From the NCBI GenBank assembly GCA_003563855.1, contig PWTM01000251.1, positions 1-53,844 of the forward strand: DNA of 53,844 nt. The letters run 5' to 3'. The notes beneath the pieces are model-generated. The model saw only the letters and a list, made by a program, of their open reading frames with translations, made no database searches and had not been told where the DNA came from. The position numbers were made by a program, and so were the translations under genes. The stretch is from PVC group bacterium. GTDB lineage: Bacteria > Verrucomicrobiota > Kiritimatiellia > PWTM01. This document shows positions 39,186-44,730 of this stretch, piece by piece. Positions within the stretch are counted from its first letter, which is position 1, and each line of letters opens with the position of its first letter.

Positions 39186-40174
39186 GTTCGGGTGGGACCG
39201 CGCGGCCGACGCTGGTGCTCCTCGGCGGGGTGTTCGCCTGTTCGACCGCGGTGATCATGATCAAGGCGAGCGCGACGCATGCCTTCGCGCTGTCCGCCTT
39301 CCGGTTGCTTGTCGCCGGGATCGCGCTGCTTCCGCTCTTCCTGCGCGCCTGGCGGCGGCATCGCGCGCAGGTCACCCCGCGCGACCTGGCCCGCGCATTG
39401 CTGCCCGGCGCCTTCCTCGCGCTGCACTTCATCACGTGGACGATCGGCGCCCGGCTGACGCTGGCGGCGAACGCCTCGCTGATCGTGAACATGGTCCCGG
39501 TGGCGATGCCGCTGCTGCTGCACACCATGCTCGGCGAGGCCATCAGCCGCGGGGAGCGGCGCGGCACCGCGCTGGCGATGGCCGGCGTCATCGTGCTGGG
39601 CGCCTCCGCGGCGCGGGTGAGCCTGACGACACTGGCGGGCGACGCGATCTGCCTGCTCTCGATGCTGCTCTTCGCGGTCTACCTCATTTTCGGCCGGATC
39701 AACCGCCATCTGCCCAGCATCTGGCTTTACGTGGTCCCGCTCTACCTCGGCGCCGGGCTCATCTGCCTGGTCGTCGCGCTTCCGTTTACGCCGGTTTTCC
39801 AACCGTACCCGGTGCGCGAGATCGCGCTACTGCTCGGGCTGGGCCTGGTCCCGACGGTGCTGGGCCACTCGGCGCTGATGCGCGCGATGAAGGCCCTGCC
39901 CCCGCAGCGGGTCGCCATCCTGAACCTCGGGCAGTTCGTCTTCGGCGCGCTGCTGGCCTGGTGGTTCTTCCACGAGGTTCCCGGTCCGCTCTTCTATGCC
40001 GCGACCGTGCTGCTCCTCGGCGGCGCCGTCACGGCCATCCGCGCCTCGGTCCCGCCGCCCACGGATCATGGCGGCATCGACGGTCCGTCCGGCGGATCGG
40101 GGCGCCGGTCAAGCACGCGGCGGAGCATGGGCGGGACCTCCACGTCCGGATCCAGCGCCTGCGCGCGGCGATAG
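39182..40174 (+). CDS. EamA/DMT family transporter
   Basis: 330 aa, 10 TM. ATG overlaps the rimK-like stop (ATGA). The last ~35 aa are Ser/Arg-rich and overlap the convergent gene. Confidence 0.82.
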   Translation: MSSGGTARPTLVLLGGVFACSTAVIMIKASATHAFALSAFRLLVAGIALLPLFLRAWRRHRAQVTPRDLARALLPGAFLALHFITWTIGARLTLAANASLIVNMVPVAMPLLLHTMLGEAISRGERRGTALAMAGVIVLGASAARVSLTTLAGDAICLLSMLLFAVYLIFGRINRHLPSIWLYVVPLYLGAGLICLVVALPFTPVFQPYPVREIALLLGLGLVPTVLGHSALMRAMKALPPQRVAILNLGQFVFGALLAWWFFHEVPGPLFYAATVLLLGGAVTAIRASVPPPTDHGGIDGPSGGSGRRSSTRRSMGGTSTSGSSACARR

Positions 40175-40473
40175 AGGCGCAGCGTCTCCTCGAACGAGAG
40201 ACCGTGATCGATCGCGGCCCAATCGGCATAGACGCGGGCGAGGAACGACCGGATGCGCGCCGCGCGCTCGGTGTCCGCATCGCCCTCCGCCTCGAGCACG
40301 GCCTCGAGGGTTTCCGCCGCCGCTTCGAAGCGCTGCTCGTTGTAGAGGGCGATCGCTTCGTTCTCGCGGGCCAGGAGGTCCTGCTCGGTCCGGATCCACT
40401 GCACGGCGCGCCAGGCGCCGAAGGCCAGCGCGGCGATCAGCGCGACCCGGAAGAGGTTGACCAACTGGCGCAA
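40066..40473 (-). CDS. Small membrane-anchored helical (TPR-like) protein
   Basis: 135 aa. TTG start with AAGGAG RBS 6 nt upstream. N-terminal TM (LFRVALIAALAFGAW). Confidence 0.55.
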   Translation of the reverse strand: MRQLVNLFRVALIAALAFGAWRAVQWIRTEQDLLARENEAIALYNEQRFEAAAETLEAVLEAEGDADTERAARIRSFLARVYADWAAIDHGLSFEETLRLYRRAQALDPDVEVPPMLRRVLDRRPDPPDGPSMPP

Positions 40474-40519: not shown

Positions 40520-40981
40520 CTACTTCTCGGCCCAGTTGCGCAGCTCGCGCTTGATCTTCTCCTCGAGCTTGCTCCCGAGTTCTTCCCATTCCGTGTCCTT
40601 CTTTCCGGACTCGTCGAGCCAGGCGCGGATGCTGCGGCGTACCCGTTCCTCCATGCGCGACCCGATCTCCTCCCATTCCTTCGCCTCGGGCGACTTCGCC
40701 CTGCGCACGCGGCAGGCCCGCGAGCGGCCGCAGCCGCCGAAGGCGATGGCCGCGCCGAGGACGAAGCCGAGGTTATAGAGCGGGCCGGCGTTGTTCGCCT
40801 CGTAGATGCCCACGCCGTCCGTGAACAGGCTCACGATGAAGGCGAAGAAACAGATCAGCCCGTGCCAGAGTCCGGCCCAGAATCCCGCGGGCGCATCGAC
40901 AAACCGTTCGTTCCCCGCCGCGCAGCCGGCCGCGATCAGCAGGACGGCGAGCAGCGATCCACCCAGGAGCAGTTTCTTCAT
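40520..40981 (-). CDS. Hypothetical lipoprotein/membrane protein with duplicated C-terminal charged motif
   Basis: 153 aa from MKKLLLGGSLLAVLLIAAGC (lipobox). Two hydrophobic segments, then EWEEIGSRMEERVRR / EWEELGSKLEEKIKR repeats. Confidence 0.65.
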   Translation of the reverse strand: MKKLLLGGSLLAVLLIAAGCAAGNERFVDAPAGFWAGLWHGLICFFAFIVSLFTDGVGIYEANNAGPLYNLGFVLGAAIAFGGCGRSRACRVRRAKSPEAKEWEEIGSRMEERVRRSIRAWLDESGKKDTEWEELGSKLEEKIKRELRNWAEK

Positions 40982-41330: not shown

Positions 41331-41340
41331 GGAGCGGCCG

Positions 41341-41364
41341 GCCCGCACCGATGGCGGTGCGGGC
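41341..41364 (-). terminator. Perfect 10-bp GC hairpin downstream of the Whirly-like gene
   Basis: GCCCGCACCG atgg CGGTGCGGGC, 29 nt after the stop. No U-tract, so terminator function is inferred only. Confidence 0.4.
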
Positions 41365-41392
41365 CGGGTTCGTCCGCGGCGCAGGCCGGCCT

Positions 41393-41944
41393 TCAGCGCC
41401 CGGCGGGAGCGGATTCGAGGCTCCCGTGGTAGACCATGAAGAAGAGGCCGCTCTGGAAGACGCAGCGCAGGCCGAGGGCCTCCGCCTCGGAGAGCAGCAG
41501 GCGTCCGCGGAAGAGCTGCTCGCCACCCTTGGTCTTCTTCGAGAGGCCAACCCCGATGCCGCCCCGCTCGGCGTCCCGCCGGACGTCGATCAGGGTATTG
41601 GCGCCGCCGTTCTCGTGGTAGATGCCGTTGGCGCGCGCGCCGCCGGCCCGCTCCTTGCGGCCTTCGAGCACGAGCAGGATCTCGCAGATGTCGGCGAAGT
41701 CCAGCTTCACGGTCGCACGGTTCTGCCAGTCGAAGCGGGCCGGCCCGCGGCCGCGCTCCTCGGACGGCTTCTGCCGGGCCATCTCGAGGAAGAAGCAGTC
41801 GTAGCGGTCGTCGCGCCGGCGGCTGAGCCGGAGCTCGAGCCGCAGCGCAGTGCCGCTGCCCTCCCGGTTCGGATGATAGAGCGTCAGCCGGCCGGGGTAG
41901 GGTCCCGTTGGCTCGCGCCGGGTCTCTTCGGTTGCGGTCTTCAT
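41393..41944 (-). CDS. Hypothetical protein, Whirly-fold-like ssDNA-binding candidate
   Basis: 183 aa, ATG with GGAAAGGAAA RBS, 43 nt downstream of ssb. Segment order ALRLEL...FFLEMA...FDWQNRATVKLDFADICEILLVLEG...IYHE...IGVGLS...LLLSEAEALGL parallels plant Whirly (ALTVEP..LLLQFAP..YDWSRKQVFSLSVTEIG..L..FFHDP..FFNLSV..IPITRAEFAVL). Confidence 0.6.
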   Translation of the reverse strand: MKTATEETRREPTGPYPGRLTLYHPNREGSGTALRLELRLSRRRDDRYDCFFLEMARQKPSEERGRGPARFDWQNRATVKLDFADICEILLVLEGRKERAGGARANGIYHENGGANTLIDVRRDAERGGIGVGLSKKTKGGEQLFRGRLLLSEAEALGLRCVFQSGLFFMVYHGSLESAPAGR

Positions 41945-41987
41945 GGCGGGTTTCCTTTCCTGTATTGAGGGATTGGCCTTCGGCGGG

Positions 41988-42380
41988 TCAGAACGGCATC
42001 GCCGTTTCGGCCTCGGCCGCCGGCGCCGCGTCGGTCGCGGCCGCCTCGCGCGGCCGGCCGAGGAAGTGGACGCGATCCGCCCGCACGCGGAGGCGCTGGC
42101 GGTTCTCGCCCTGCTCGGTCTGCCAGCGGTCGAGCTGCAGTCGGCCCTCGACGAAGACCGGCCGGCCCTTGGCCAGGAACTGGCCGCAGGCTTCGGCCTG
42201 CCGGCCCCAGGTGACGATATCGGCGAAGCAGGTCGTCTCGACCGACTCGCCTTCCTTGTTGCGGTAGCGCTCGGTGACGGCCAGGCCGAGGTCGCAGACC
42301 GTCTGCCCCGAGGGCGTCTGCTTCACCTGCGGGTCGCGCGTCAGGTTCCCCAGCAGCATCACGCGGTTGATTCCAGTCAT
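41988..42380 (-). CDS. ssb: Single-stranded DNA-binding protein
   Basis: 130 aa. OB-fold N-terminus (INRVMLLGNLTRDPQ...TCFADIVTWGRQAE) and a short C-terminal tail ending MPF. GGAGAAGGAA RBS. Confidence 0.92.
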   Translation of the reverse strand: MTGINRVMLLGNLTRDPQVKQTPSGQTVCDLGLAVTERYRNKEGESVETTCFADIVTWGRQAEACGQFLAKGRPVFVEGRLQLDRWQTEQGENRQRLRVRADRVHFLGRPREAAATDAAPAAEAETAMPF

Positions 42381-42666
42381 GGTTCCTTCTCCTGTTCTTC
42401 GGACCGCCGTTCATCGGCGGCCCTACCCCAAGAGAAGGAACGAACCCCGCACTTTTCCGAAGATTGCGGAAAGCGGCCGCCTAAACTGTTCCTTTGCAAT
42501 GAATAGCGACACTAACTCTCGGACGGCTTTCGGCGGTCTTTCAGGGCCTCCGGTGCAGACGGGTCCGGTGGCAGGCGCGCGGCCGATCCCGGAATCGGGC
42601 ATGCGGCCGGGGCAAGGGACAGGTGGCCCCGTCCTTTTTCTCTGTCCCGCGATCCTCGCCTCTCTA

Positions 42667-42808
42667 CGGCGGTCACCGACCGCCGCTACAGGATCGCGGG
42701 GACGAGAAAGGCACGAGACGGCTGTAGCCGCGGTCGATGACCGCGGTCATAGGGGGGGGCGAAGATCGCGGAAAGGATAAAGGCCGCGGTCAACGACCGC
42801 GGCTACAG
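42667..42808. repeat. Three spaced palindromes CSGCGGTC-N3-GACCGCSG
   Basis: CGGCGGTCaccGACCGCCG (42667-42685), CCGCGGTCgatGACCGCGG (42728-42746), CCGCGGTCaacGACCGCGG (42784-42802). Extended flanks are CTGTAGCC / GGCTACAG. Centres lie 61 and 56 bp apart. Confidence 0.85.
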
Positions 42809-43543
42809 ATGGCGGTTCCCCGGCCTTCCGCGGCGCTTCTCGTGGGCATCCGTCCGGTAGGTCGCGCGCGGTTCGGCGGCGATCGGCAGCGCGGCGTCGC
42901 GGGGGATGGGATATTCGAGCGCGTCGGCTGGCGCGGCGGCCGCGCGGACGGGCACGCCGAGACCGTCGAAGAGCGCGCGCTCTTCCTCGATATACGCATG
43001 GCGCGGGTCGCAGGGGTGACGAAGCGACGGGCCGGCCCGCGGGGCGAGGTCGGCCGGCAGGTCGAGGCCGTCATCCCGGACGCGGACGAGGCGGAGCGCC
43101 GCCCTTCGGTCGGCCGCGCGCAGCCTGCCGACGGGCCAGGCGCGTTCGAGGGCGACCCGCGGCATGCGCCGCGCGTTCCAGCAGCAGAGGACGAGCAGCG
43201 GCGTCGGGGCCAGCGCGGTCCGCCACTCGCCGGGTGTGGCGGGGACGGGGAACCGGCCGAACGGGGCGGCGATCACGGAGGGATCGTCGGGATCGCTCTC
43301 GATCACCGCGACGTAGCAGGGCCGTTCGCAGGCCGCCGGGGTATCGGGGCGCAGCAGCCGGATCTCGCCGATGCGGACGGGCTGCCGGCGGCCGCGCTGC
43401 GGTCGGGGCGGCGGACGCCCGGCGGGGGCGTCCGTCGGCGGCGGATCGGCGCGCCATGCGCGCAGCCAGGCCTCGAGCGCCGCCCGCTCTTCCGAGGCGG
43501 CGGGCTTCGTTCCCGGTCGGGTTCGGGGCAGGCGGGGACTCAT
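42803..43543 (-). CDS. Hypothetical protein (246 aa), translationally coupled to upstream sigma-like gene
   Basis: ATG overlaps the upstream TGA (ATGA). Non-repetitive sequence. The central segment GEIRLL...YVAVIE...VIAAPFG...LVLCCWNAR...VGRL loosely follows PemK/MazF-like motif order (weak). Confidence 0.55.
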   Translation of the reverse strand: MSPRLPRTRPGTKPAASEERAALEAWLRAWRADPPPTDAPAGRPPPRPQRGRRQPVRIGEIRLLRPDTPAACERPCYVAVIESDPDDPSVIAAPFGRFPVPATPGEWRTALAPTPLLVLCCWNARRMPRVALERAWPVGRLRAADRRAALRLVRVRDDGLDLPADLAPRAGPSLRHPCDPRHAYIEEERALFDGLGVPVRAAAAPADALEYPIPRDAALPIAAEPRATYRTDAHEKRRGRPGNRHL

Positions 43544-44508
43544 ACGCGATGCATCCTTCGTCCGCGCCTGGCGCGGGTGGCGGTGGGCGCGTGGGGTTCG
43601 GACCGCGAGGGTCCCGGGCGACCGGCGGGCACGGGTTCCGGCGCGGCCGGCCGGGGCGCGGGTGCGGGCTCGATCGGGCGGAAGCGCCGGCCAAAGAGCG
43701 CGGCGCAACCGCGTTCCGAGCCGGCCCAGTCGGCGGCCTGGACGGTCAGCCGGCCGAGCGTGTGGCGGGCGAGGACGAGGAGCGCGTCGGACGTCTCCGC
43801 CGGGTAGTCGGCGCGCAGGCGGGCGGCGAGGCGTTCGAGCGCGGCGCGGTAGGCGGCGTGGAGCGCGCTCCTGCCACAGCGGGCCGCCCGCAGGACGGGC
43901 GGGCGGTCGAGCGGCCAGCCGCGCCCGCGCGCCGCGAGGGCGACGCGCTCGCGGCGGTCGAGGTCCGGCCAGTGCCGCGCGGCCTGGCGGTCGGCGATCT
44001 CCATGAACTCCCGGTCCGCAGCCTCGTCGAACGGGGTCTCCTCCGCGGGCAGGAGATCCTCGGCAGTCAGCGTGCCGTCGCCGGCCGGGCGGAGCGGCGC
44101 CTGGAGGGAGCGGAAGCGCGGGTCGGGCGCCTCCCGCGCGAGGTAGGCGCGGACCACGTCGCGCATCAGCAGCGTGGCGCCGAAGGCGAGCGCCGCGGCC
44201 GGCGGCTGATCGCAGCCGCGCGCCCAGGCGAAGAGCCAGGCCTTGTAGCGTTTGCCGCGCCGGCCGCGGCCGGCGGCCAGGTGGGTTTCGAACCGGTGCC
44301 AGCATTCCGCGGGGGCCGGCACCGGAACATCGGGCGCCGCGCACCGGCGGCAGCAGGCGCGGAATCGTGCACCCGCGAAATCGCGCAGCGACTCCGCGGT
44401 CTCGGGCGGACAGCGGGCGAGGGAGCAACGCCGCCGCCAGCGCGCCCAGTCGACCAGCCGGACGCCGCGACGTTCCGGCTCAGCGGCGATCTCGGCCGTG
44501 CCCGTCAT
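43540..44508 (-). CDS. Hypothetical protein, divergent ECF sigma-factor-like
   Basis: 322 aa from MTGTAEIAAEP (ATG 44508, GGAGG RBS 5 nt upstream). Region-2-like KAWLFAWA...ATLLMRDVVRAYL and region-4-like LDRRERVALAAR...SALHAAYRAALERL. Assignment is tentative. Confidence 0.5.
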   Translation of the reverse strand: MTGTAEIAAEPERRGVRLVDWARWRRRCSLARCPPETAESLRDFAGARFRACCRRCAAPDVPVPAPAECWHRFETHLAAGRGRRGKRYKAWLFAWARGCDQPPAAALAFGATLLMRDVVRAYLAREAPDPRFRSLQAPLRPAGDGTLTAEDLLPAEETPFDEAADREFMEIADRQAARHWPDLDRRERVALAARGRGWPLDRPPVLRAARCGRSALHAAYRAALERLAARLRADYPAETSDALLVLARHTLGRLTVQAADWAGSERGCAALFGRRFRPIEPAPAPRPAAPEPVPAGRPGPSRSEPHAPTATRARRGRRMHRV

Positions 44509-44730
44509 GCCGCCTCCGATCTCGCTGTTGGGTGTGAACGTGACAGCGCGGGTGAGCGCGAGACGGAGGGGGAGCCGGCGGGGTGCGGCAGGCCGTGCCA
44601 CTCGCGTCCGAGATGTCCATCCCCGGCTCCTTGTCGGATTCCTGGCGGTTTCTCCGAAGGAAGCGAATTTCGGCCTTTCGGAGAATGGACCTGTCCACGA
44701 AAGGCAGGCGGCACTCCCCGCCCCACTGCC

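Follow-up and report, generated by a model that had tools for sequence, protein, structure and literature searches.

Plant Whirly proteins are tetramers that bind single-stranded DNA (ssDNA) in organelle repair (PMC3245945, PMC7549692). Binding is non-specific, runs along the edges of the beta-sheets and suppresses microhomology-mediated rearrangements (PMC7549692, PMC3245945). Reviews still describe the family as plant-specific (PMC9070903, PMC11712025). Here we analyse a gene for a 183-aa protein that lies directly downstream of ssb, the gene for single-stranded DNA-binding protein (SSB), on contig PWTM01000251.1 of a PVC group bacterium of the Kiritimatiellia (assembly GCA_003563855.1). Judged by profile comparison and structure prediction, its product is a true but distant bacterial homologue of plant Whirly, with the type-I PC4-like fold. 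We call the gene whirly. The window is the whole stretch of DNA that was analysed, 53,844 nt, and every feature located below is on its minus strand.

In kinetoplastid mitochondria, guide RNA is annealed to mRNA by a heterotetramer of MRP1 and MRP2. The same tetrameric fold is used for RNA by MRP1/2 and by the homotetrameric ChmC of jumbo (chimalli-) phages, which binds ssRNA as well as ssDNA (PMC11077065). ChmC resembles the bacterial family in being a Whirly-fold protein of the prokaryotic world. It is built of beta3-alpha repeats, carries a disordered tail that forms condensates, prefers RNA and serves in the handling of phage mRNA; unlike the bacterial family, it has no detectable sequence similarity to Whirly. 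The wider PC4/Whirly superfold is well known from bacteria and phages, in YdbC, Bpur, the N-terminal domains of Shedu and Menshen, and ChmC (PMC3575825, PMC3764826, bioRxiv 10.1101/2023.08.10.552793, PMC12065111, PMC11077065). YdbC/DUF2128, SP_0782, Borrelia Bpur and the sPC4/Whirly domains of Shedu and Menshen have the same superfold as the window protein, in which beta4-alpha units pair into a curved sheet, and they bind single-stranded nucleic acid, as is proposed here for that protein. Unlike it, bacterial PC4-like and PUR proteins are half-size dimerising units (type II) or PUR repeats, and the literature covered reports neither sequence-level homology to Whirly nor an ssb operon for them.

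A sequence-only reading of this DNA had taken Whirly to be essentially plant or organellar, with no characterised bacterial member known. This holds for the literature searched, which yielded no account of a bacterial family related to plant Whirly by sequence, and none of an ssb-whirly operon. It needs qualifying for the databases, which already touch the family: pre-computed Pfam matches, and the name 'Whirly transcription factor' given to a phage protein in UniProt, mean that a few bacterial and phage proteins carry the label automatically.

A conserved gene directly downstream of ssb

The first gene of the pair, ssb (41988-42380), encodes a canonical bacterial SSB of 130 aa that matches PF00436 (E 1.1e-32, 112.6 bits) and TIGR00621 (E 2e-37, 129 bits). 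A hydrophobic ...PF tip at the C-terminus is typical of canonical bacterial SSBs, and the gene product has both this tip and the OB-fold domain. The OB fold covers residues 4-107 and is followed by a short tail terminating in ...AMPF; an (M/L/I/R)PF tip is common to this SSB and those of its relatives. No second ssb was found within the window.

The whirly ORF (open reading frame) starts with ATG and occupies 41393-41944, where the sequence-only reading had placed it, after a spacer of 43 nt (41945-41987). The spacer carries a Shine-Dalgarno-like AGGAAAGGAAA at 41951-41961, 6 nt 5' of the whirly ATG, which bears out the ribosome-binding site of its own that had been claimed for the gene. A terminator scan of the spacer found none. 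Homologues are numerous: a word-indexed search returned 151 at E <= 1e-3, and an exhaustive search returned 787 representatives of clusters defined at 50% identity, 442 of them at E <= 1e-10. Mean column identity across a 40-sequence family alignment is 41%, and the GC3 of the ORF (0.91) is that of the adjoining genes. Because it has many homologues, is strongly conserved and has the codon composition of its neighbours, the 183-aa ORF is a genuine gene. A genome scan also matched the window sequence to a contig of GCA_003567235.1.

Fold and sequence homology to plant Whirly

The AlphaFold2 model of the 183-aa protein (pLDDT 88.6, pTM 0.82) has a disordered N-terminus of about 18 residues followed by a beta4-alpha-beta4-alpha topology. 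Strands at 19-24, 32-39, 50-58 and 77-81 and a helix at 83-93 make up the first repeat. The second consists of strands at 107-112, 115-123, 130-138 and 143-151 and a helix at 153-176, which is long, amphipathic and conserved in the family alignment. The model thus contains the tandem beta-beta-beta-beta-alpha repeat that is expected of the Whirly fold. A Foldseek search against the Protein Data Bank (PDB) gave 17 matches at E <= 1e-3 (probability 1.0, TM 0.54-0.76), all of them plant Whirly (4koo, 3n1h, 4koq, 1l3a, 4kop and 3r9y/z, representing WHY1/2/3, StWhy2 and PBF-2) or Trypanosoma brucei MRP1/2 (2gid, 2gje and 2gia). PUR-alpha was much weaker (E about 2e-3, all >= 1.8e-3; TM 0.33-0.37), matches below it were noise, and no PC4 or YdbC entry stood among the top 50 PDB matches. 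This ranking rules out PUR-alpha and PC4 (type II PC4-like) as the best structural match. Since the model shows the beta4-alpha repeat and matches Whirly and MRP1/2, the fold does not differ from the Whirly-like one first proposed.

The relationship is also visible in sequence, revealed solely by a broadened profile (A2), by hhalign and by structure; a narrow family profile (A1) searched against PDB sequences found nothing. A 90-member family profile retrieved potato StWhy2 from the PDB sequences at E 5e-4, the other entries listed being Whirly, MRP1/2 and two weak pilus-assembly entries at E 0.07-1. One relative, P0260, searched by itself, reached StWhy2 at E 8.5e-5. Pfam Whirly (PF08536) is matched at E < 1 by 27 of 40 relatives, and P0038, P0046, P0080 and P0260 score 25.8-34.9 bits, above its gathering score of 23 bits. 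When the family profile was aligned by hhalign with four plant Whirly sequences, taken from PDB entry alignments, the probability was 96.3% (E 1.5e-9, 129 columns); the narrower 40-sequence profile gave 80.8%. These profile alignments reproduce the order of conserved segments that the sequence-only reading had proposed. FDW-x-x-K/R aligns with plant YDW-x-K-K/R, 'KLdFaDiCEiL' with 'sLSvTEIGsL', and 'LSEAEAlGL' with 'iTrAEFAVL'.

Compared with plant Whirly (StWhy1/p24-PBF-2, 1L3A; StWhy2, 3N1H; AtWHY1/2/3, 4KOO/4KOP/4KOQ), the bacterial protein has the same fold, with TM up to 0.76, at an identity of about 15-18% in structural alignments. Both families carry the F/YDW-x-x-K/R segment, an F-H motif, the 'AEA/AEF' helix and an A-A/x-L strand, and H110 of the window protein aligns with the conserved His of the plant FFHDP motif. 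Length is similar and so is the basic isoelectric point (pI), at 9.6 for the window protein, 8.8 for the family median and 9.1 for the plant Whirly domain; several Arg/Lys and aromatic residues are conserved in the family alignment. The differences are equally clear. The PVC proteins lack the transit peptide and acidic C-terminal tail of the organellar plant proteins, invariant Y23, H24, C50 and C87 are particular to the bacterial clade, and the bacterial gene, unlike plant Whirly, stands in a predicted operon with ssb.

Membership of the MRP1/MRP2 family was considered and rejected. Matches to Pfam MRP (PF09387) are weak and confined to 5 of the 40 relatives (best E 0.0089, far below the gathering score), and the locus has one gene copy, as against a heterotetramer of two paralogues. 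Sequence similarity to MRP1/2 is marginal, at E 0.07-0.17 for the profile against PDB sequences.

Distribution and gene neighbourhood

A scan of species-representative genomes yielded 72 loci, every one from a metagenome-assembled genome (MAG). Where taxon-labelled, they belong to Kiritimatiellia, Lentisphaerae/Victivallales, Verrucomicrobiota or 'PVC group', with one exception binned as Neomarinimicrobiota. The main clade comprises 62 loci at >= 42% identity, 58 of which have enough upstream sequence to test for a neighbour. In 41 of these 58 (71%), the immediately preceding gene is ssb, in the same orientation and at a median gap of about 92 nt; conservation beside ssb, which the sequence-only reading had put forward as a check, is thus found in most of the clade. 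Five loci (L009:3950-4609, L023, L024, L025 and L058) have an ERCC4+HhH nuclease gene (XPF/Mus81-like, about 219 aa) inside the ssb-whirly cluster or next to it, in one case between ssb and whirly. Victivallales MAG CAYLXP01 has two Whirly-like copies (L050 and L051), on different contigs and neither beside ssb.

The remaining 10 loci form a distant clade from gut and rumen Kiritimatiellae, at 30-39% identity (L066-L075, for example L066:4390-7009). Here ssb is adjacent in none of the 10, and in nine the gene lies between comM/yifB, encoding a Mg-chelatase-like AAA+ helicase, and yraN, encoding a UPF0102 endonuclease-like protein. Across both clades, the recurrent identifiable neighbours are all DNA-metabolism genes, namely those for SSB, the ERCC4 nuclease, ComM and YraN. 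A DNA repair or recombination context is common to plant Whirly and the bacterial family.

SSBs were also sampled from further ssb loci in PVC and other phyla. Their similarity to the window SSB is roughly that seen among the Whirly-linked SSBs, which suggests that the linked ssb is the usual housekeeping gene and not a specialised paralogue.

Three prokaryotic subfamilies could be compared by hhalign. Alignments to the main clade gave E 2e-38 and 1.6e-45, whereas those to plants gave E 5e-9 to 4e-5. The three are mutually far closer than any is to plants, and therefore form one family of which plant Whirly is a distant relative. By hhalign (95.9%, 26% identity), plants are approached most closely by a short Lys-rich subfamily of about 155-165 aa (P0256-P0266), whose proteins share a terminal ...GW with plant Whirly. 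Within it, a homologue search with P0260 returned one relative, and a genome scan with P0263 gave two partial matches that were judged spurious. A 4191-aa protein, P0140, matches positions 111-150 of the family profile 28 times over, in separate stretches; either the protein consists of repeats of a beta-hairpin-like unit or the matches are a compositional artefact.

Candidate expression signals around the pair

Upstream of ssb lies a bipartite candidate promoter/operator motif, CGGAAA - about 10 nt - TCGTT(T/C)C (42437-42459). In the form (T-rich)-CGGAAA-N10-TCGTTTCTTTA, it is shared at fixed spacing by about 28 of the 41 ssb-linked loci, including L009, L023, L026, L031-L034, L038, L045 and L060, and stands 52-88 nt ahead of the ATG of ssb. 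This spacing fits neither standard sigma-70 nor ECF promoters. The motif is followed in the ssb leader by a 9-bp stem-loop (42401-42423), which is found in the same place in most relatives while its sequence varies between loci (mean z -1.19; 13 of 25 with z < -1.5). Motif and stem-loop are candidates for the promoter/operator and the structured 5' leader of a bicistronic ssb-whirly transcript.

At the other end of the pair, a perfect GC-rich hairpin stands 26 nt 3' of the whirly stop codon (41338-41367). The sequence-only reading had seen a perfect 10-bp hairpin at 41341-41364; the hairpin is there, but its stem is longer, at 13 bp, with arms at 41338-41350 and 41355-41367 and a 4-nt loop. 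The 81-nt stretch that contains it has a predicted folding energy of -47.9 kcal/mol (z = -2.1 relative to shuffled sequence), and no U/T-tail follows it. This is probably where the bicistronic unit ends. A further hairpin with a T-rich tail, terminator-like, stands at the end of the gene upstream of ssb (42783-42803). That it separates the upstream gene pair from ssb-whirly is only suggestive, because the region holds no more predicted terminators than shuffled sequence does.

The conserved motif and leader hairpin would also suit a regulator. On this account the Whirly homologue would serve as a transcription factor, or else associate with the nucleoid, much as nuclear PBF-2 of plants or Bpur of Borrelia; one possibility is autoregulation of the ssb operon by way of the upstream motif. 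Plant Whirly was first described as a transcription factor (PMC9070903). We regard this as quite improbable. Nothing connects the Whirly homologue to the motif, ssDNA binding by Whirly is sequence-nonspecific (PMC7549692), and the possibly sigma-like product of a neighbouring gene, g353 (see below), is the more obvious candidate regulator.

Proposed role and the RNA-binding alternative

The reading that we favour, and consider likely as a whole, is that the gene encodes a distant Whirly homologue that is co-transcribed with the canonical ssb and works as a tetrameric ssDNA binder beside SSB. Here whirly would be the second gene of a two-gene transcript shared with the cell's canonical ssb, running from the promoter-like motif and leader hairpin through ssb, the 43-nt spacer with its Shine-Dalgarno sequence and whirly to the 13-bp hairpin. 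By analogy with plant Whirly, MRP1/2 and ChmC, the protein most likely assembles as a homotetramer. In Whirly the tetramer, or 'whirligig', is built through the C-terminal helices, and the window protein has the long, conserved amphipathic helix at 153-176 in that place. The tetramer would hold single-stranded nucleic acid of any sequence on a basic beta-sheet surface; the basic pI, the conserved basic and aromatic residues and the neighbouring ssb and repair genes lend ssDNA binding indirect support. Its substrates, alongside SSB, would be the ssDNA intermediates that arise in repair and recombination, and it might, for instance, keep resected ends from annealing spuriously. The analysis itself shows the homology, the fold, the layout of the operon with its conservation in PVC bacteria, and the DNA-repair gene contexts, whereas the tetramer, the ssDNA binding and the cellular role are inferred.

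Several observations weigh against this reading. The window protein alone is unmatched in Pfam (E <= 1), NCBIfam and a phmmer search of the PDB, so that homology is visible at the level of profile and structure only. In some 29% of the testable main-clade loci ssb is not adjacent, and among 79 further ssb loci sampled, whirly lies within 2.5 kb in three, all of which were already in the locus set. The ComM/YraN-linked subfamily is mildly acidic, with a pI of about 5.8. MRP1/2, which are RNA binders, fit the model as well as Whirly does (2gid_A ranks second, E 2.9e-6). Finally, the plant motif KGKAAL corresponds to G-S/T-G-x-A-L in the bacterial family, where its lysines are absent.

KGKAAL aligns with G29-S30-G31-T32-A33-L34 of the window protein, and comparison of the 3R9Y and 3N1H sequences identifies K67 of StWhy2 as the second Lys of the motif. 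K67 is needed for assembly of the 24-mer, for cooperative binding of long ssDNA and for protection against DNA damage in planta (PMC3245945). The position is held by G31, an invariant Gly in 90 family members. With the equivalent of K67 missing, the bacterial protein probably does not form the plant-type 24-mer. KGKAAL is also missing from green-algal Whirly-like proteins (PMC9070903), and it is therefore a mark of land-plant Whirly and not of the fold family as a whole.

The equally good fit of T. brucei MRP1/2 (2GIA/2GID/2GJE; E about 3e-6 to 2e-5) raises the main rival to ssDNA binding. The protein could bind mainly RNA, acting as a matchmaker or handling mRNA in the manner of MRP1/2 or ChmC, and its linkage to ssb would then reflect regulation in common and not joint work on ssDNA. 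Five relatives do have weak MRP matches in Pfam, and the Whirly-fold tetramer of ChmC prefers ssRNA (PMC11077065). At the level of sequence, however, the similarity is to plant Whirly and not to MRP. RNA binding is further disfavoured because the gene contexts, with ssb, the ERCC4 nuclease, ComM and YraN as the recurrent identifiable neighbours, are those of DNA metabolism. We therefore hold this alternative to be unlikely and retain a role on ssDNA beside SSB.

Other neighbours and the mobile-element alternative

Two further genes accompany the unit. The first, g246 (42803-43543, 246 aa), stands beside ssb/whirly in 27 loci, and the second, g353 (43540-44511, about 323 aa, its ORF reaching 44601), encodes an all-helical protein and does so in 30. 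They form a conserved pair that is either co-directional and upstream, as in the window, or divergent from ssb (for example L013:3077-4835 and L009:722-2331). The pair abuts whirly without ssb in L016 and L063, and ssb without whirly in L084. Searches of Pfam, PDB sequences, PHROG and PADLOC gave no match for either protein, and the g353 model (pLDDT 70.9) has no significant fold match. The g246 family has the strongly conserved motifs PGEW, LRVLCxWN and GPPLxHPLDPRH. In g353 there is a helix-turn-helix-like segment, 'RERxALxARxxGLSL...AGCxKSxL', and several members give sub-threshold sigma-70/ECF matches (TIGR02937 8.9e-4, Sig-70_plancto1 1.2e-3, SigK three times); g353 may thus be a very divergent sigma-70-family protein. 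Two genes lie downstream of the unit (40066-40473 and 40520-40981). They encode a 153-aa predicted lipoprotein whose signal peptide ends LIAAGC and a 135-aa membrane-anchored TPR-like protein. Among the loci compared, these two occur only in L001, whose contig is identical to the window.

The sequence-only reading had allowed that the pair might be a mobile-element remnant. Phages often carry ssb, the window SSB matches phrog_44 (E 6.9e-40), and the best viral fold match of the whirly model is the UniProt entry 'Whirly transcription factor [uncultured Caudovirales phage]'. One member of the Lys-rich subfamily, L158:8001-8483, even lies on a phage-like 185-kb contig (JAXOUH010049148.1, GCA_034680565.1). 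A prophage or element that left behind an accessory SSB module is nevertheless highly improbable here. GC (0.70-0.72) and GC3 (0.91-0.93) equal the window average, and the flanking genes are housekeeping genes (SecDF, EamA, RimK-like, ETF/FixC). No tRNA or Rfam element was found in the window, a search with family patterns found no member in IMG/VR, and PADLOC gave no match. The pair also occurs in species-level genomes across several classes with its flanking genes conserved. The native composition, the housekeeping neighbours and the empty PADLOC and IMG/VR searches led us to set aside both the mobile-element and the defence readings.

The L158 contig itself carries tightly packed co-directional genes, with phage-type matches to a DNA polymerase exonuclease subunit, a homing endonuclease and DUF1508.

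Discussion

What is new here is a large bacterial family, of 787 clusters, that has sequence-level homology to Whirly and is linked in many genomes to a canonical ssb. The evidence supports a bacterial branch, tied to DNA maintenance, of a family that has been described as plant-specific.

The family bears both on the evolutionary origin of Whirly and on its division of labour with organellar SSBs, and for the first question it offers a prokaryotic outgroup. A more far-reaching proposal is that the PVC family, possibly phage-borne, is the prokaryotic root of plant organellar Whirly. SSB and Whirly would then be an ancestral two-component system for handling ssDNA, inherited by Archaeplastida or gained by horizontal transfer, and the pair might form a DNA-damage or recombination module together with g353 and g246. 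We put this forward as speculation and consider it unlikely.

For the second question, the bacterial pair provides a simple system for asking what a Whirly tetramer contributes on ssDNA beyond SSB itself, and the protein is a natural variant without the Lys that drives 24-mer formation. For the Kiritimatiellota, Lentisphaerota and Verrucomicrobiota themselves, the homology to Whirly suggests a likely function for a widespread 'hypothetical protein', which would act on ssDNA at the side of SSB.

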